A stretch of DNA of 27,739 nucleotides from a virus (lineage: Duplodnaviria; Heunggongvirae; Uroviricota; Caudoviricetes): the IMG/VR virus record IMGVR_UViG_2695420411_000008; one strand, 5' to 3'. Both the position numbers and the translations under genes were made by a program. This document shows, piece by piece, positions 19,954 to 27,739 of the stretch (its first letter is position 1; each line of letters starts with the position of its first letter). The notes under the pieces were generated by a model. That model was not told the DNA's origin. It did no database searches and saw only the letters and a program-made list of their open reading frames with translations.

Positions 19954-21024
19954 ATGACTATTAACTGGAATCGCCATTTTGAACTGCGGCTTCTGAACGA
20001 CAAGGGGAATGGCATATCCCTGTCGGACTTTAAAGTTACCTTCGCAATCGACTGGTTTAACTCGATGTGGCCACGTGTGGCGACGCTTAAAATTTACAAC
20101 CTCAAGCGTGACACAATCACCCGGATTACGGGGGATGAGTTTTCTCGCATTACCATCATAGCCGGTTATAACGGCCTGGCGCCGACGGTTACTGAAAGCG
20201 AGGTTGGGCAGGTTACCGAGATTTCATCTGAGCAAACCGGCCAGACGCGCGGGCAAAATTACGGAGTCATTTTTGATGGGGAGATTCGTTTTACGATAAC
20301 CGGGCGCGATAATCCTACCGATATTTTTACGCTAATTCAGTCGGTAGATGGTCATAAGGCGTTCAACGAAGCCGTATCGTCCGGCAGCCTGGCGGCAGGA
20401 TATAAGCTTGCCGACGTGCATACACTTCTGATGAAGGACTTTTCGCCTTACGGCATCACCCAGGGCATCACCGGGCAGTTCCCTGACAGGGTGATGCCAC
20501 GCGGTCGCGTCTTCTTCGGCGCAACGCGCGACTACATGAGCAACCTAGCGGCGCAGTGCGAGGCTAACTGGCAATTTGTCGACGGCCAGCTGCAAATGGT
20601 GCCTGAGAATAAATATCTCCATGAAGCGATCGTGCTTAACACCAAAACTGGCCTGGTCGGTATGCCTCAGCAAACCATGGGGGCAGGCGTTAATGTGCGC
20701 TGTCTCATTAATCCAAACATTCGGGTTAACGGGCTTATTCAGTTGAACCAGGACTCGGTGTATCGCTCGCAATTACCGAACGATGAGATCCAAAGATCAC
20801 AGGCAAGGATTACTGAGGCAAATGATAATGGTAATCTTAGTACAGGCAGCGCGACGCTTGCGCAGCCCGCCAGTGTGGCAACTGATGGCGTTTACATAGT
20901 TCAGTCAATCAGCTACACCGGCGATACGAGAGGGAATCCGTGGTATATGGATCTCATGTGTATGGCCAGAGGGGCGCGTGATTTACAATCGAATACGGCC
21001 CTACAGCGAACGGCTCCACAATGA
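19954..21024 (+). CDS. Baseplate hub protein (Mu gp44 / P2 gpD-like)
   Basis: 356-aa ORF preceding the spike, W-like and J-like baseplate genes. Confidence 0.6.
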   Translation: MTINWNRHFELRLLNDKGNGISLSDFKVTFAIDWFNSMWPRVATLKIYNLKRDTITRITGDEFSRITIIAGYNGLAPTVTESEVGQVTEISSEQTGQTRGQNYGVIFDGEIRFTITGRDNPTDIFTLIQSVDGHKAFNEAVSSGSLAAGYKLADVHTLLMKDFSPYGITQGITGQFPDRVMPRGRVFFGATRDYMSNLAAQCEANWQFVDGQLQMVPENKYLHEAIVLNTKTGLVGMPQQTMGAGVNVRCLINPNIRVNGLIQLNQDSVYRSQLPNDEIQRSQARITEANDNGNLSTGSATLAQPASVATDGVYIVQSISYTGDTRGNPWYMDLMCMARGARDLQSNTALQRTAPQ

Positions 21025-21377
21025 AAAAAATACTTTTTTTGGTTTCTTTAGCATTCGTCAGTTTTTCTTCTACAGCGGCAAACACCGCTTATATGAAGTG
21101 TGGTCCCTTTACTTTCTCAACCTCATCAAGCAACGACGGATATCCGAGGATAAACGGAGCAAAGCCTGATAGTCAGAAGGTGACATTCCTCAAAAAAGAG
21201 GGAGATTATGACAATATTAAAATGCAATGGATTGTCATGAATGAGAATTCTGGGCAGCGCTATGGTCTTGATTATATAAAACGCAATGGGAGAGGGATAC
21301 TCAATGCCGAGGCCATCAGAATGAACATGAATGAACCTCGAGTGTTTGGAACTTACGACTGCGTGAAGGCTAAGTAA
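21021..21377 (+). CDS. Secreted hypothetical protein (118 aa) in an AT-rich insertion
   Basis: ATGA overlap with hub stop; signal peptide MKKILFLVSLAFVSFSSTAA; two Cys (27 and 114); AT-rich relative to flanking tail genes. Confidence 0.6.
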   Translation: MKKILFLVSLAFVSFSSTAANTAYMKCGPFTFSTSSSNDGYPRINGAKPDSQKVTFLKKEGDYDNIKMQWIVMNENSGQRYGLDYIKRNGRGILNAEAIRMNMNEPRVFGTYDCVKAK

Positions 21378-21387
21378 TTTAATAAAG

Positions 21388-21408
21388 GCGCCGGAACTAC
21401 CGGCGCTC
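21388..21408. terminator. Hairpin shared by the convergent inserted genes
   Basis: GGCGCCGG / AACTA / CCGGCGC(T) stem-loop between convergent stops; T-rich tract on the minus-strand side. Confidence 0.5.
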
Positions 21409-21410
21409 AG

Positions 21411-21761
21411 TTACTCGTCTTTAAAACTTATAATTTTGTACTGCTCCAGTACTTCTGAAAGCTCCTTTGATGTCAGATTTTGTATTTCGATCGTACCTTT
21501 TTCAGTGGTTACCGTTATTTTTTTTGATGATCTGGTCTGTAACCATTTTCTCGCTATCGATGCAATGGCGATACAAGCTGGTGATGATGTGATAACGGTA
21601 ATAGATATTTCGAGAATTGTGCCAATAGCGCCAGGAGAATCACCCGTTCTGACTCTTTTACTTACTACATAGTCATTAGCGGGTATGTTATCCTGGATTA
21701 CAGGAAGTAACTCTTTCCAAATAGCTGGAGTAAATTTTATGGTTGTTTCTGATTTTGGCAT
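21411..21761 (-). CDS. Hypothetical membrane protein (116 aa), convergent partner in the insertion
   Basis: Minus-strand ORF with a central hydrophobic segment AIGTILEISITVITSSPACIAIASIA; weak RBS; AT-rich. Confidence 0.45.
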   Translation of the reverse strand: MPKSETTIKFTPAIWKELLPVIQDNIPANDYVVSKRVRTGDSPGAIGTILEISITVITSSPACIAIASIARKWLQTRSSKKITVTTEKGTIEIQNLTSKELSEVLEQYKIISFKDE

Positions 21762-21941
21762 AAAGGTTTCAGGCCCCTATCGAGAGAAGCTAAAAATTGC
21801 CTACCGGCTTTTCCTTAGCAGCCTGTATCTTGCTACAAATCACGACGTTACCGTGGTTCTAAGCAAAACCTATATTAAGAGCTGCAATGAAGATAAATAG
21901 CACGCATTAACTCACCCTCAAATCCTGACATTTGATCAGTA

Positions 21942-21962
21942 ACCCGCCTCGGCGGGTTTTTT
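21942..21962 (+). terminator. Intrinsic terminator upstream of the baseplate spike gene
   Basis: ACCCGCC-TC-GGCGGGT hairpin followed by TTTTTT, 18 nt before the ATG at 21980. Confidence 0.6.
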
Positions 21963-21979
21963 ATTACCTGGAGAAAGCT

Positions 21980-22633
21980 ATGCCAGTATCAGCCCGCGCG
22001 CAGGACGGCAACGAATCGCAGACTCTTGAGGCGCACCGCCACGCCATTTTCGGCAGCCTGCGCGTGGCTTTGCCGGGGATCATCCAGTCCTTTGACCCTG
22101 AAACAGTGACATGCACCGTGCAGCCAGCCATCTACGGTCAGCGGCTCAGCGACGATGGCGCTCTGGTTTCTGAGGAGATACCGATTTTGCCAGACGTTCC
22201 AGTGGTGTTCCCCCGCGGCGGTGGCTGCACGTTAACCTTCCCGGTAAAGGCCGGTGACGAGTGCCTCCTGGTCTTCTCCGATCGCTGCATCGACTTCTGG
22301 TGGCAGAGCGGCGGGGGGCAGGAACCGGTTGACCCGCGCCAGCATGACCTGAGTGATGCGTTTGCCATTGTGGGTCCGCAGTCGCAGGCGCAGAAAATCA
22401 GCAGCATCAGTACCAGTGCGGTTGAACTGCGCAGTGACGACGGTGGAACAAAACTGAGCCTTAACCCTTCATCCGGAGCGATAACGGGAACCGCGCCGGG
22501 AGGCTTCAACCTTAACGGTCTGAAAATTCTGCCTGACGGCCGCCTGCAGCTGGTGGATGGCTCCATGGTTGATAAGCATACGCATGGCGGCGTGGAAGTC
22601 GGCGGCAGCAATACGAAACCACTGGGAGGGTAA
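21980..22633 (+). CDS. Baseplate spike / assembly protein V-like
   Basis: GGAGA RBS then ATG at 21980; the ORF-track start at 21932 would run through the terminator hairpin; position before the W- and J-like genes. Confidence 0.7.
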   Translation: MPVSARAQDGNESQTLEAHRHAIFGSLRVALPGIIQSFDPETVTCTVQPAIYGQRLSDDGALVSEEIPILPDVPVVFPRGGGCTLTFPVKAGDECLLVFSDRCIDFWWQSGGGQEPVDPRQHDLSDAFAIVGPQSQAQKISSISTSAVELRSDDGGTKLSLNPSSGAITGTAPGGFNLNGLKILPDGRLQLVDGSMVDKHTHGGVEVGGSNTKPLGG

Positions 22634-24189: not shown

Positions 24190-24866
24190 GTAGGTACACG
24201 GATCTAATCACTAACTACCACGCCACTAAGCCGAAATACCTCGATCACATCGATCTTAGTACCCGTCCCCTGATTGATATCACGTCAGCCACAAGGGGCC
24301 TGGTGAGTGCGTTTGACATTGATACGGCTGTTGGCGTGCAACTCGATATTCTCGGACTCTGGATTGGACGTAGCCGTATAGTCAGCCAGCCCATTAGTGG
24401 CGTTTATTTCAGTTGGGACACGGAGGGGCTCGGATATGACCAGGGCGTATGGCAGGGGCCATATGATCCTGACTCCGGCTATACGACGCTTAGCGATGAT
24501 ACCTATCGCACTATTCTGAAAGCAAAAATCGCTATTAACAACTGGGACGGGCGTAACGACTCGCTTCCGGACATTCTTGACACTGCCACAGTGGGTTCGG
24601 GCCTGAAGATGCAGATCGTCGACAATCAGGACATGACGATATCGGTCTGGGTATTTCCCGAGACTGATATTTCTGATGTGTCTCTCGAACTGATCGCCGC
24701 TATCAAACAGGGCTATCTCACCGTTAAAGCCGCTGGCGTCTGGGCCGGTGATGTTGAAATGCCTTCGGTTGAAACACCGTCCGAAGGAACAAAATTCTTT
24801 GGATTTGACATGGATAACGAATACATCGCCGGTTTTGATGACGGCGCATGGGGGAGATTACTTTAA
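24186..24866 (+). CDS. Tail protein I-like (baseplate wedge)
   Basis: 226-aa ORF overlapping J stop and tail-fibre start. Confidence 0.6.
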   Translation: MSRYTDLITNYHATKPKYLDHIDLSTRPLIDITSATRGLVSAFDIDTAVGVQLDILGLWIGRSRIVSQPISGVYFSWDTEGLGYDQGVWQGPYDPDSGYTTLSDDTYRTILKAKIAINNWDGRNDSLPDILDTATVGSGLKMQIVDNQDMTISVWVFPETDISDVSLELIAAIKQGYLTVKAAGVWAGDVEMPSVETPSEGTKFFGFDMDNEYIAGFDDGAWGRLL

Positions 24867-25645
24867 TGGCTGGAACTAATGATTTTAAAGCGTTTGCGAC
24901 AGATGCTAATGCAAATGTTACCTCGCAGGAGGAATGGGAGACGCTAACCGCACTGAAGAAAGGATTCTCCTCGGGTAAAGCATCCAGCGCACAGGTCAGT
25001 AAAGCGCTGCGCCAACCGTCGACGATGGCGGCTGTACTGGGGCAGTTTATCGCGAACGCCGAACTGGACGCGCTCGATGATGGTGACGTTGATGGACTGG
25101 TGGCAAAGCTGGCGACAGCGATTACCACAAACCTTGGTTTGGGAGAAGGCTCAGCATTACCCGTTGGCGTACCTGTTCCGTGGCCTTCAGCCACACCGCC
25201 GACAGGCTGGCTGAAATGCAACGGTGCCGCTTTTTCTGCTGAAGAATACCCGGAACTGGCAAAGGCTTACCCGACAAATAAATTGCCTGATTTACGTGGT
25301 GAGTTTATTCGTGGCTGGGATGACGGGCGTGGAGTGGATAGCGGTCGTACTTTATTAACGAATCAAGAGCATGCAGTAATTTCTCATAATCATGGAATAC
25401 CTACAAAAGTGGGGTCAGTTACTAATATCCCGTATGGAATAGAACAGGTTATATCTGATGAAACCATTTTTTCATCAGCAAAAACAGTTGGTGTGGATTA
25501 CTGGTCTAACAGTGAAAGAGTTTTTACTTATACCTCTGGTGGAAGAAATGGTGCTGAATCAGTGAGTTCACCTGATGCCTCCTCTTTAATTAAAGAAACC
25601 AGACCACGGAACCTAGCATTTGCGTATATCGTGAGGGCTGCATAA
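24866..25645 (+). CDS. Tail fibre protein: constant N-terminal part fused to the currently expressed variable C-terminal domain
   Basis: GGGGGAG RBS 9 nt before ATG 24866 (ATG overlaps upstream stop); C-terminal PWP...GWLKCNG...LPDLRGEFIRGWDDGRG collar-type receptor-binding domain; crossover site inside the gene. Confidence 0.75.
   Translation: MAGTNDFKAFATDANANVTSQEEWETLTALKKGFSSGKASSAQVSKALRQPSTMAAVLGQFIANAELDALDDGDVDGLVAKLATAITTNLGLGEGSALPVGVPVPWPSATPPTGWLKCNGAAFSAEEYPELAKAYPTNKLPDLRGEFIRGWDDGRGVDSGRTLLTNQEHAVISHNHGIPTKVGSVTNIPYGIEQVISDETIFSSAKTVGVDYWSNSERVFTYTSGGRNGAESVSSPDASSLIKETRPRNLAFAYIVRAA
25122..25147. promoter_or_regulatory. Left inversion crossover site (hix/gix-like, 26 bp)
   Basis: TTACCACAAACC-TT-GGTTTGGGAGAA; the 14-bp core TTGGTTTGGGAGAA (25134-25147) is a perfect inverted copy of 27106-27119. 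Confidence 0.6.
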
Positions 25646-26247
25646 TGGTGAAAGCAAAATTAAACAGTGCGTTTATTGCCACCGTGGCAGGTGAAATCAC
25701 TGTGTACAACTACCGGGGCGACACCCGCGAATACATATCCTCATCGGTTGAGTATCTGCCTGTGGGGGTGGGTATTCCTGCCAATTCCTGTACCGATGCG
25801 CCCGGCACACATAAAGCTGGTTATGCAATCTGCCGTTCTGCAGATTTTAACTCATGGGAATATGTGCCAGACCATCGCGGTGAAACGGTATATAGCACTG
25901 AAACAGGAGAATCAAAAGAAATCACAGCTCCGGGTGATTACTCTGAAAATACAACTACTATCGCCCCGTTAACGCCATTCGATAAATGGGATGGTGAGAA
26001 ATGGGTGACCGATACTGAGGCACAGCATAGCGCCGCAGTAGACGTGGCAGAAGCACAGCGCCAGTCGCTGATTGATGCTGCTATGGCTTCCATCAGTCTG
26101 ATTCAGCTGAAATTGCAGGCCGGGCGGCAACTGACGCAAGCAGAAATCACTCGCCTTAACGCTGTGCTGGATTACATTGACACGGTGACGGCAACAGATA
26201 CCAGCACCGCGCCGGATGTCATCTGGCCTGAACTGCCGGAGGCGTAG
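25645..26247 (+). CDS. Tail fibre assembly protein (Tfa, active orientation)
   Basis: ATG overlaps tail-fibre stop; conserved C-terminal DTSTAPDVIWPELPEA motif shared with the minus-strand paralogue. Confidence 0.75.
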   Translation: MVKAKLNSAFIATVAGEITVYNYRGDTREYISSSVEYLPVGVGIPANSCTDAPGTHKAGYAICRSADFNSWEYVPDHRGETVYSTETGESKEITAPGDYSENTTTIAPLTPFDKWDGEKWVTDTEAQHSAAVDVAEAQRQSLIDAAMASISLIQLKLQAGRQLTQAEITRLNAVLDYIDTVTATDTSTAPDVIWPELPEA

Positions 26248-26662
26248 GCCATTCAATATCTGGAGCACTGGAGGTATCAACCAGTTCCAGTGCGTCCAGA
26301 TAATCCAGCCACAAATTATATTGCGCCAGTTCCTCACTTTTCAGACGACCAATCGCCGCTTTGCCAGGCCACTGATGAGTATTGATGTAGGTATTGACTT
26401 CAGAAACCAAAGATATTTTTTTCATTTCAGCCGTCAACACCTCATCCTCTTTTGAAGGGGGTGGGGAATTAATCCATACTGGCCGTCCTGAACTGTCAGC
26501 GCCAATTTCTTTCCCTTCTGGATGCAGCCCAAGAAATTGCTCATATGTTTCTCTGGTAATTTCAATAACATCATCAGGAAGCGTTCCCGCATCCTCATAT
26601 TCTGGAAACAATTCTTGCAGATAAAAACTTTTACTTCCGGGTGAAAAGAATACTGAGTTCAT
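26219..26662 (-). CDS. Tail fibre assembly protein (Tfa', alternative orientation)
   Basis: Convergent with tfa, overlapping by 29 nt; C-terminal DTSSAPDIEWPTPP motif parallels Tfa. Confidence 0.7.
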   Translation of the reverse strand: MNSVFFSPGSKSFYLQELFPEYEDAGTLPDDVIEITRETYEQFLGLHPEGKEIGADSSGRPVWINSPPPSKEDEVLTAEMKKISLVSEVNTYINTHQWPGKAAIGRLKSEELAQYNLWLDYLDALELVDTSSAPDIEWPTPPAVQAR

Positions 26663-26664
26663 TC

Positions 26665-27119
26665 TTACCGTCCAATGATTAATGCTGAGACGCTGGTATC
26701 TGAAGGAAAGGCTGCATTCAGTGGTTTGTCGACTTTGAACACAATCGTATTATTCCCCCTGACAGCGGCAAAAGAACAAACCGCAGTCGCGTATGAACCT
26801 GTAATATTACTGGATACACCACCATAAGCTGTTGTTGATACCAGAGGGATAACGCCCAGCACCTTATTAGGAAATACAAAGGGCAATGTGGCTGTGGCAA
26901 TATAAGACTTATTAGAACCTGTAATGGCATAAGCATTATCAGTCATTCCATTCATCGCCACCGGGCCGCTTATACTTACAGTAACCATCTGAATGATTAG
27001 CCCGTCAGGTTGACGAATCACAAAATTTCCATTGCCACCAGTAACCGTCCAGAAAGACATATCAGGGATTTGGTTTTCCCCGTTGCCCACATTCCGTTTT
27101 GCCGCTTCTCCCAAACCAA
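26665..27119 (-). CDS. Alternative tail-fibre C-terminal cassette (Sv'), currently lacking its own start
   Basis: Minus-strand frame open from the right crossover site; reads KVGLGEAAK across the core, matching NLGLGEGS at the left site, so inversion would fuse it in frame to the constant part. Confidence 0.65.
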
Positions 27120-27131
27120 CCTTTTTTATAA
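27106..27131. promoter_or_regulatory. Right inversion crossover site (hix/gix-like, 26 bp)
   Basis: TTCTCCCAAACC-AA-CCTTTTTTATAA; closely resembles hixL TTCTTGAAAACCAAGGTTTTTGATAA. Confidence 0.6.
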
Positions 27132-27190
27132 CCATCAAAAATCTGGTGATGCTTCGCCGTTTCTCCTGTTTTCATAACAGGAGAAATCCC

Positions 27191-27739
27191 ATGATTTACG
27201 GTTATGCCCGAGTATCAACAAACCACCAGGACACTGAATTGCAACTAACGGCGCTCAAGTCAGCGGGTTGTGAGAAAATTTTTGAAGAGCATGCCAGCGG
27301 GAGGAAATCGAATCGGCCGGTTCTAAAACGGCTGATCGCCACTATGCAGCCGGGGGATGAACTGGTGGTCTGGAAGCTGGACAGGATAGGCCGCAACGTT
27401 CTGCATGCGCTGTTGATGTTCCAGCAGTTACAGGAAAAGGGTATCAACTTCCGCAGTATTACCGATGGCGTGGATCTCAAAACAGCCAGCGGCCGCTATA
27501 ACTTTCGTAACATCCTTTCCGCAGCACAATATGAATCTGATCTTAATAGCGAACGTACCTTAGCAGGGCTGGCCGTAGCCAGGGCAAAAGGGCGAGTTGG
27601 TGGTCGCAGGCCTAAGTTCACGGATGAGCAATGGCGGGAAATGGGGGAGCGGATGGCAACCGGTGAATCACGACAAAGCGTATCAAAAACGTATGGAGTA
27701 GGGCTCTCAACTCTGTATAAAAAGTTTCCAGCTAGCTGA
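27191..27739 (+). CDS. Serine recombinase, DNA invertase (Hin/Gin/Cin/Pin family)
   Basis: AGGAGA RBS; N-terminal YARVSTNHQD with catalytic Ser, VVWKLDRIGR motif, C-terminal HTH GVGLSTLYKKFPAS; 182 aa, stop at the window end. Confidence 0.9.
   Translation: MIYGYARVSTNHQDTELQLTALKSAGCEKIFEEHASGRKSNRPVLKRLIATMQPGDELVVWKLDRIGRNVLHALLMFQQLQEKGINFRSITDGVDLKTASGRYNFRNILSAAQYESDLNSERTLAGLAVARAKGRVGGRRPKFTDEQWREMGERMATGESRQSVSKTYGVGLSTLYKKFPAS

Follow-up and report, generated by a model that had tools for sequence, protein, structure and literature searches.

The stretch of DNA analysed here, IMG/VR record IMGVR_UViG_2695420411_000008 (27,739 nucleotides, in the following called the window), belongs to a temperate myophage integrated in Escherichia coli as a prophage of roughly 40 kb at a site adjoining yciI/tonB. 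The window is 100% identical to NZ_CP062811.1. We focused on the junction between the gene of the baseplate hub and the gene of the membrane-puncturing spike. It contains three open reading frames (ORFs): ORF1, which directly follows the hub gene and whose product is predicted to be exported; ORF2 on the opposite strand, which we assign by sequence to the pore-forming EACC1 family; and ORF3, a short gene whose start overlaps that of ORF2. The pair formed by ORF2 and ORF3 is the main subject of this work. The features of the junction are listed below with their positions in the window and their strand.

19954–21024, plus strand: baseplate hub gene (phrog_196 baseplate hub, E = 3.8e-83; NCBIfam NF047561).
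21021–21377, plus strand: ORF1, 118 amino acids, predicted exported eight-stranded β-barrel with the cysteines C27 and C114.
21021–21080, plus strand: predicted Sec signal peptide of ORF1 (approximately residues 1–20, cleavage near TAA↓N, heuristic assignment).
21388–21406, minus strand: GC-rich hairpin, the intrinsic terminator of ORF2 (7/7 GC pairs, then CTTTATTAAA).
21411–21761, minus strand: ORF2, 116 amino acids, a full-length EACC1-family protein as judged by Pfam PF19953, BLASTP and hhalign.
21639–21650, minus strand: RTGD of ORF2 (residues 38–41), with Asp41 aligned to Asp49 of KrEACC1 (RTQD).
21549–21608, minus strand: predicted hydrophobic helix of ORF2 (residues 52–71) with the central small-residue patch TSSPAC.
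21739–21900, plus strand: ORF3, 53 amino acids, recognised by its frame-specific ratio of nonsynonymous to synonymous polymorphism (pN/pS) and by homologues in head-to-head position.
21727–21730, plus strand: ribosome-binding site GGAG of ORF3, 8 nucleotides upstream of the ATG and invariant in five diverged modules.
21924–21939, plus strand: 16-nucleotide motif CCTGACATTTGATCAG with a GATC site inside, between the ORF3 stop codon and the terminator.
21941–21964, plus strand: intrinsic terminator 3' of ORF3 (7-bp stem at 21941–21958, then TTTTTATT).
21980–22633, plus strand: membrane-puncturing spike gene (Pfam PF18352 spike N-terminal domain, E = 6e-43; also named by the Prokaryotic Genome Annotation Pipeline, PGAP).

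ORF2 matched the Pfam profile PF19953 (EACC1) with 29.1 bits at a gathering score of 23.6, residues 37–106 being aligned with positions 26–104 of the 107 profile positions. In the E. coli record of 100% identity PGAP gives the protein the name EACC1. A BLASTP comparison with the characterised KrEACC1, whose sequence was taken from the supplement of bioRxiv 10.1101/2025.11.14.688446, resulted in 35% identity over 98 amino acids (E = 1e-9), and hhalign aligned KrEACC1 residues 12–107 with ORF2 residues 5–107 at a probability of 96.6%. RTQD49 of KrEACC1 lies over RTGD41 of ORF2, and the hydrophobic segment starts with GTILEI in both proteins. The aspartate at position 41 is kept in 19 of 21 family members. 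The predicted helix that follows (residues 52–70, ISITVITSSPACIAIASIA, Kyte-Doolittle value 1.83) forms a near-invariant block in close relatives and matches the single helix with a patch of small residues described for EACC1 (PMC7159879). Thirteen of the 21 aligned subfamily members match the EACC1 profile independently, the best with E = 3.9e-9. Both halves of ORF2 are under purifying selection (pN/pS 0.25 overall, 0.31 for the N-terminal domain); the C-terminal half, which by homology is the pore-forming part, is the most conserved region. An AlphaFold2 (AF2) model with a mean predicted local distance difference test (pLDDT) score of 61.7, and thus of low confidence, shows the order beta-alpha-beta, loop, beta/helix, beta-hairpin, helix, beta, which is compatible with the published EACC1. 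On the grounds of sequence, helix and aspartate we assign ORF2 to the EACC1 domain family. By homology it retains the N-terminal domain, the small-residue helix, the C-terminal beta-hairpin and, in RTGD41, the aspartate.

EACC1 was introduced in the literature as the constant 5' member of a gene pair whose 3' member encodes a protein fused to a caspase; canonical EACC1-caspase systems are reported chiefly from actinobacteria and bacteria with a multicellular habit, and not from enterobacteria (PMC7159879). The protein is an autoinhibited monomer. A caspase-like Avs protease cuts it at Asp49, and the C-terminal fragment then oligomerises to form membrane pores (bioRxiv 10.1101/2025.11.14.688446). 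In the window, the gene order 3' of ORF2 is a terminator followed by ORF1 on the opposite strand, and no caspase gene adjoins. A search for peptidases by annotation and profiles, covering the window and the rest of the prophage, yielded none that was recognisable. We considered two candidates for a cryptic protease, a 467-residue protein of unknown function next to the repressor and a DUF2213 head protein, and dismissed both, as neither gave a caspase or CHAT signal. The locus is not an EACC1-caspase system: the defining partner is absent from the prophage. As a separate observation, the gene of the 467-residue protein (L127 5831–7234, left of the window) lies directly 3' of a repressor-like helix-turn-helix gene, and its product has no Pfam or PADLOC match. 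This position is a typical slot for defence genes expressed in the lysogen.

Among 1.84 billion representative proteins, searched exhaustively with HMMER, no more than 24 relatives of ORF2 came to light, mostly standalone and 112–127 amino acids long. The most distant family members, in the loci L111–L113, are the weakest profile hits (P0077, P0079) and have a Peptidase_C14 gene on their 3' side, which places the canonical system at the edge of the ORF2 subfamily. ORF2 might accordingly be an orphan effector that is cut after Asp41 in trans, either by a caspase-like protease of the host or by a protease of an infecting phage for which it would be a decoy substrate, with ORF3 merely tuning expression. 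Such a role would suit the aspartate that is so widely kept and aligned with the mapped cleavage site, the purifying selection on the N-terminal domain and the caspase neighbours of the canonical members. It is at odds with a prophage in which no caspase or CHAT gene can be recognised, and it leaves unexplained why a protein-coding ORF3 with conserved residues is strictly co-inherited. We regard this explanation as unlikely.

ORF3 lies in DNA that the preliminary description of the window had presumed to be intergenic. Conservation is higher in the region from the ORF2 start to the terminator than in either of the coding regions. The first 23 nucleotides of ORF3 are the reverse complement of the first 23 nucleotides of ORF2, so that the two starts overlap on opposite strands. 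In its own frame ORF3 has a pN/pS of 0.17–0.19, compared with 0.8–1.5 in the other two frames, and the differences between the window and Citrobacter are distributed 7/6/24 over the three codon positions. The family shares the motif G-[SP]-Y-x-x-K-[LI]-...-L-...-N-x-x-V-x-[LV]. An upstream ATG in the same frame would give a form of 71 amino acids (21685–21900, plus strand); the 53-residue form is conserved in length and stands behind the conserved GGAG.

The two genes occur together. We ran profile hidden Markov models (HMMs) of the ORF2 and ORF3 families over every fetched locus and found both genes in 29 loci, in all of them on opposite strands and with overlapping 5' ends. The overlap of the starts is approximately 20–40 nucleotides across the modules. 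Homologues of ORF3 are found head-to-head even with ORF2 homologues of 27–37% identity (L101, L088, L055, L107). Among the fetched loci there was no phage-type ORF2 without an ORF3-like reading frame (that of L114 is present and escaped the HMM), and caspase-linked EACC1 loci had no ORF3. The ORF3 homologues fall into 25 clusters, all of them unnamed, and ORF3 gave no Pfam, NCBIfam, PHROG or PADLOC match. Two other explanations for the conserved DNA were rejected. At the sequence level ORF3 is not a duplicate of the N-terminal beta-alpha-beta domain of ORF2 (hhalign probability 0.7%, no BLASTP alignment). Neither is it a mere conserved untranslated region (UTR), promoter or antisense RNA, given its frame-specific pN/pS of 0.18 and its conservation as a protein beside strongly diverged ORF2 homologues. 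ORF3, and not ORF1, is the real partner of ORF2.

Gene callers, those for metagenomes included, usually annotate either ORF2 or ORF3 at a locus and seldom both. PGAP lists EACC1 without ORF3 in NZ_CP062811, and ORF3 (WP_016243572.1) without EACC1 in NZ_CP109924 and NZ_CP060075. The same one-gene annotation becomes apparent when L001 20912–21262 is compared with L002 8091–8441, L004, L122 3164–3541 and L107 4880–5044.

Twice, in different allele lineages (L003 and L085), ORF2 is deleted or truncated and ORF3 is intact. In type II toxin-antitoxin systems the antitoxin can outlive the toxin, and the pair behaves in the same way, although on only two events. In its architecture it departs from that type, since the genes are divergent with a 23-nucleotide start overlap and have separate terminators instead of being co-transcribed in an operon. 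A type I system was rejected as well: ORF3 is protein-coding, and ORF2, with 116 residues and soluble domains, is not a hydrophobic peptide of less than about 60 amino acids. The pair might nevertheless act mainly as an addiction module that kills cells losing the prophage or the cargo slot and thereby stabilises this element, with anti-phage defence being secondary. The persistence of ORF3 after the loss of ORF2 in the two lineages would be expected then. The tight overlap of the starts would allow reciprocal control, and classical toxin-antitoxin genes (Fic/Doc, Phd/YefM) are found in the same junction of other phages. A chromosomally integrated prophage, however, would gain little from post-segregational killing, and a simple toxin would have no need for the full autoinhibitory N-terminal domain and the cleavage-site aspartate that ORF2 retains. 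Furthermore, the rexAB-like position next to cI, which the pair takes in lambdoid phages, is typical of exclusion genes. We see addiction as a minority prospect that deserves some weight.

The pair was observed in three phage slots: at the baseplate, in the interval between cI and N, and beside a lysis cassette. In the lambdoid relatives (L116–118, L122–124) the module occupies the interval from cI to N, directly 3' of cI, as rexAB does in phage lambda, and ORF2 has the same orientation as cI. In the baseplate slot ORF2 is on the strand opposite to the late genes. Each gene has a terminator of its own, here and in the other contexts, which makes the module a divergent unit complete in itself; its presence in the three slots shows that it is cargo moving between phage contexts. 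All three are classical slots for cargo expressed in the lysogen and point to such expression of ORF2 and ORF3. In three of the lambdoid loci a conserved gene of 134 amino acids follows the EACC1-like gene on its 3' side in the same orientation (L116 5537–5941 and the equivalents in L117 and L118). The product is hydrophobic near its N-terminus and matched nothing in Pfam or PADLOC; it could be a further component of the lambdoid variant of the module.

In the third context (L110) the module stands immediately 5' of a holin-endolysin cassette. Together with the membership of ORF2 in a pore-forming family, this would fit a lysis accessory in which ORF2 and ORF3 time the lysis of the phage like a holin and an antiholin. 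In L110, however, there is a terminator between ORF3 and the holin gene. The prophage of the window has its own holin, lysozyme and Rz1-like genes approximately 18 kb upstream of the module. Its ORF2 is oriented against the late operon and not arranged in a holin/antiholin cassette. The module is also present in only about 10% of the related phages and occurs beside cI as well. A role in lysis timing is therefore very improbable.

Phages often carry homologues of host immune components that act as inhibitors. ORF2 might likewise be a counter-defence decoy, i.e. a non-lethal mimic of EACC1 that titrates a caspase-type protease of the host or poisons the pore assembly of a host EACC1, and the retained protease-recognition region would serve such a purpose. 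The orientation of ORF2 against the late operon with a terminator of its own, and along with cI in the lambdoid phages, however, indicates expression in the lysogen rather than at an early stage of lytic infection. The strong conservation of the pore-forming half would be unexpected in a pure decoy, and the systems to be countered have been reported mainly from actinobacteria and multicellular bacteria rather than from enterobacteria (PMC7159879). We consider this reading quite improbable.

A short motif of 16 nucleotides (CCTGAYATTTGATCAG, 21924–21939) lies just 5' of the ORF3 terminator. Inside it are a Dam site (GATC) and a mini-palindrome (CTGA/TCAG). The motif was found without mismatch in 16 loci with the module, including those with 27–37% identical ORF2, and with one mismatch in L003 and L004. 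In the modules of the baseplate context it is retained despite a divergence of about 60% in the coding DNA. It was absent from approximately 85 related loci without the module as well as from the modules in the lambdoid, lysis-cassette and L107-type contexts. Shuffled sequences gave zero chance matches, and no Rfam family corresponds to the motif. It could be the seed of a 3'-UTR or small RNA, a protein-binding site or a recombination boundary. A LexA box was rejected by eye, since the spacing is CTG-N9-CAG and not CTG-N10-CAG.

The hairpin at 21388–21406 scores as a terminator on the minus strand only, 5 nucleotides past the ORF2 stop codon; the plus strand lacks the run of T. An equivalent is present in L122. 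The terminator on the ORF3 side folds with -15.4 kcal/mol (z = -2.6) and is kept in the alignment of the modules. Two terminator-like sites in the region are not above chance (1.3 expected from shuffles); what supports a function is that they lie directly past stop codons and return in homologous modules that have diverged. An Rfam search of the region with E-values up to 1 found no RNA family. Deposited phage genomes gave 0 matches to the region by megablast and 0 by tblastn to either ORF2 or its lambdoid variant; complete E. coli genomes did not contain the lambdoid variant either.

Several features of the junction had been pointed out in the preliminary description and could be corroborated. 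The GC content is 0.38–0.41 over approximately 21000–21900 and 0.49–0.63 on either side; for the entire junction it is 0.41, compared with 0.55 in 3 kb of flanks. The 118-residue protein begins with two lysines and a hydrophobic segment and has the two cysteines C27 and C114, and the 116-residue protein has its hydrophobic core at residues 52–70. A terminator (stem at 21941–21958 and T-run) precedes the spike start at 21980. The hairpin between the two genes is present too, but it is not shared by them and terminates ORF2 only. Of the two proteins, neither of which had been recognised, ORF2 passes the EACC1 threshold and was already named by PGAP. The idea of a membrane toxin with a partner came near the mark for ORF2; the partner, however, is ORF3 and not ORF1.

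To put the junction into context we used the hub protein as an anchor and retrieved 97 related loci from collections of genomes and from IMG/VR, in which 90 distinct junctions were measured. They are 394–2592 bp long and in every case have a lower GC content than their flanks (0.27–0.49, mostly 0.36–0.48, compared with 0.49–0.59). Apart from the genes described here they carry a Fic/Doc toxin, a Phd/YefM antitoxin, T5orf172/MUG113 and KilA-N proteins (L041 6127–6606; L092 5508–5756; L057 5543–6805; L119 3877–4407) and dozens of families without a Pfam match. Phages are known to have cargo hotspots, and the hub-spike junction is a general hotspot for cargo and toxin-antitoxin genes. In this respect the AT-rich accessory cassette proposed earlier for this position is supported.

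An ORF1 homologue is located immediately 3' of the hub gene in 66 of the 90 junctions. In many loci it is the only junction gene, for example in the junctions of about 400 bp of L009, L031, L043 and L049. ORF2 is present in nine of the 90. With this sporadic distribution, the GC difference to the flanks and terminators on both sides, the ORF2/ORF3 pair has the properties of a phage moron; the wide presence of ORF1 does not fit that description. ORF1 is a near-core late gene of this lineage of temperate myophages, not an insert. In the preliminary description, related phages that all carry the same genes at this position had been named as an observation that would speak against an insertion; this is largely the situation for ORF1 and not for ORF2. 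The same description had viewed the secreted ORF1 and the membrane protein ORF2 as partners acquired as one cassette, in accordance with their adjacent, convergent arrangement and their common low GC content. The distribution of the genes contradicts this. About 57 junctions have ORF1 but no ORF2. ORF2 for its part is found behind unrelated genes (a lipoprotein in L088, other proteins in L055) and also in the lambdoid and lysis contexts, where ORF1 is lacking. Furthermore, ORF1 is probably coupled to the hub gene. A common cassette is hardly credible.

The start codon of ORF1 overlaps the stop codon of the hub gene (ATGA, 21021–21024), a detail that had been missed along with ORF3 and that recurs in L002 and in Citrobacter. 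This overlap makes a translational coupling of ORF1 to the hub gene probable. Besides the profiles listed above, the hub matches Pfam E217_GP41 with 26.7 bits, slightly under the gathering cutoff of 27 bits. ORF1 belongs to phrog_3443 (E = 3e-43), and its homologues form 46 clusters across Enterobacterales. The family is also found in isolated phages, for example in Klebsiella phage Mulock as gp020, right behind gp019 in the hub position, and in ST405-OXA48phi1.2. The AF2 model of ORF1 is a small eight-stranded β-barrel (pLDDT 86.9, with low values at residues 1–20), which as a confident model argues for a disulfide-stapled barrel. C27 and C114 are invariant in the family, and the mature domain is conserved from C27 on. 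The N-terminal hydrophobic segment is variable; in ORF1 it follows K2 and K3, and there is no lipobox. From the predicted signal peptide we infer export to the periplasm, and as an exported protein ORF1 would not be part of the virion. ORF1 was not assigned to the periplasmic lysozyme-inhibitor families MliC/PliC or Ivy, since neither sequence nor fold matches them.

The sequence identity of ORF1 is independent of that of the hub: L026 has 93% identity in the hub and 43% in ORF1, and the corresponding values for L006 are 83% and 80%. ORF1 is thus presumably a late-expressed periplasmic protein under diversifying exchange. In the junctions that lack ORF1 the slot is filled by a lipoprotein of approximately 230 amino acids (11 junctions) or by other families with signal peptides. 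A crude signal-peptide heuristic assigned export to the product of the first gene after the hub in at least 76 of 89 junctions; the misses are by eye mostly members of the ORF1 family or lipoproteins. The predicted export and the filling of the slot by unrelated exported proteins and lipoproteins in relatives suggest that ORF1 is an envelope-acting factor. With low confidence we propose a role in exclusion or immunity, for example by blocking the tail tips of superinfecting phages.

Elsewhere in the window, the tail-fibre region (approximately 24848–27739) ends with oppositely oriented genes for tail-fibre assembly and a serine recombinase (recombinase family protein according to PGAP). It looks like an invertible host-range segment of the Gin/Min type.

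The best explanation that we can offer for the junction as a whole, and to which we give about an even chance of being right, is that of an independent exported protein, ORF1, next to a latent pore toxin, ORF2, which is expressed in the lysogen together with its small control protein ORF3. In the lysogen ORF2 and ORF3 would be transcribed independently of the late operon, and ORF2 would be held as a latent pore-former. ORF3 would be the control subunit, most likely an antitoxin-like inhibitor, as suggested by the two independent ORF2 deletions that left ORF3 behind. Since the start codons overlap, each promoter should be located inside the coding sequence of the partner gene and both mRNAs should be complementary at their 5' ends. 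This complementarity could add antisense effects and transcriptional interference to the control by the protein. A trigger, for example phage infection, would then act either through the loss of ORF3 or through a protease cutting in trans after Asp41, and would free the pore-forming fragment. The freed fragment would depolarise or kill the cell, resulting in abortive infection or exclusion. The prophage itself encodes a Q-like antiterminator (1633–2463), so late transcription should pass the terminators and run through ORF3 in sense and through ORF2 in antisense direction. In the phage's own lytic cycle these Q-antiterminated transcripts may shield it from the ORF2 toxin.

Going one step further, ORF2 and ORF3 might represent a minimal, protease-independent abortive-infection module of the EACC1 type, in which the 53-residue gatekeeper takes the place of the caspase-sensor fusion and which temperate phages would carry from one cargo slot to another; or the aspartate might make ORF2 a bait for the protease of an invading phage. 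We put this forward as a tentative and rather doubtful proposal.

Several points weigh against the explanation given here for ORF1, ORF2 and ORF3. The conserved Asp41 argues for a continued need of proteolysis, but a protease was not identified, and its very small size excludes ORF3 from this role. That ORF2 is toxic, is cleaved and forms pores, and that the module is expressed in the lysogen and serves in defence, is deduced throughout from homology and genomic context, and the AF2 model of ORF2 is of low confidence (pLDDT 62). ORF3 could equally be an activator or a sensor, as the case for an antitoxin rests on the two deletions. A scan for sigma-70 consensus promoters found nothing beyond the expectation from shuffles and no site suitably placed for ORF2 or ORF3. 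PADLOC gave no match for ORF1, ORF2, ORF3 or their neighbours. For ORF1, profile and structure searches revealed no informative relative in sequence or structure, and its coupling to a late structural gene fits expression in the lytic phase better than exclusion by a lysogen.

The closest characterised system is KrEACC1-KrAvs12 from Ktedonobacter racemifer (Evans et al., bioRxiv 10.1101/2025.11.14.688446). KrEACC1 and ORF2 are in the same length class (114 and 116 amino acids) and share a W-x-Q/K-x-R motif and the C-terminal beta-hairpin. In contrast to KrEACC1, ORF2 is not followed by a caspase-Avs gene; its partner is a divergent protein of 53 residues encoded with overlapping start codons. 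Moreover, the ORF2 module is found in temperate phages of enterobacteria, whereas the Avs locus lies on the chromosome of a filamentous bacterium. With the EACC1-caspase system described by Kaur, Burroughs, Iyer and Aravind in 2020 (PMC7159879) ORF2 shares the character of a small constant component with one hydrophobic helix and alpha+beta extensions. It differs in the missing 3' gene for the caspase-fused variable component and in that its subfamily is borne by phages in Enterobacterales. In the papers discussing EACC1 we came across neither a prophage-borne, standalone or orphan EACC1 nor a small overlapping partner.

Among systems of phages, lambda RexA/RexB is the nearest in position. The similarity consists in the cI-N interval of the lambdoid phages, in the organisation as a two-gene prophage system and in the predicted membrane-permeabilising effector. 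RexA and RexB are expressed in the lysogen and cause abortive infection by depolarising the membrane. There is no sequence homology, however, and ORF2 and ORF3 are divergent and overlapping instead of co-transcribed. Furthermore, the effector ORF2 is a small protein of the EACC1 type and not a polytopic ion channel. The bacterial gasdermins, in turn, share with EACC1 the principle of an autoinhibited pore-former that is freed by site-specific proteolysis, an analogy drawn in the EACC1 paper itself (bioRxiv 10.1101/2025.11.14.688446). Their fold and family are unrelated to EACC1, and gasdermin genes always adjoin the gene of their protease. For ORF1 a comparison can be made with Spackle of T4, Llp of T5 and Cor of phi80/N15, exclusion proteins that act at the envelope and whose genes lie next to those for tail or receptor-binding proteins. 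ORF1 resembles them in its small size, its predicted export, its location in the tail module and a slot that is otherwise filled by unrelated exported proteins and lipoproteins; it differs in its coupling to a late structural gene.

The near-constant presence of an exported protein after the baseplate hub, drawn from several families without relation to each other, points to a so far unstudied function directed at the envelope and linked to the tail tip. The ORF2/ORF3 module also illustrates that overlapping gene pairs are systematically half-annotated. Only recently did EACC1 turn out to be a death effector that forms pores once a linked caspase has licensed it. A subfamily in phages that has the autoinhibitory domain and the aspartate, no linked protease and a small overlapping partner raises the question of how else an immune pore can be gated. 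The module is short (approximately 550 bp) and occurs in E. coli, including a strain from a culture collection, which makes this question readily testable; the E. coli strains NCTC11023 and Res13-Sevr-PER07-33 have it at 99.8–100% identity. The pairing of ORF2 with ORF3 suggests that toxins of the EACC1 type may be controlled in a different way.

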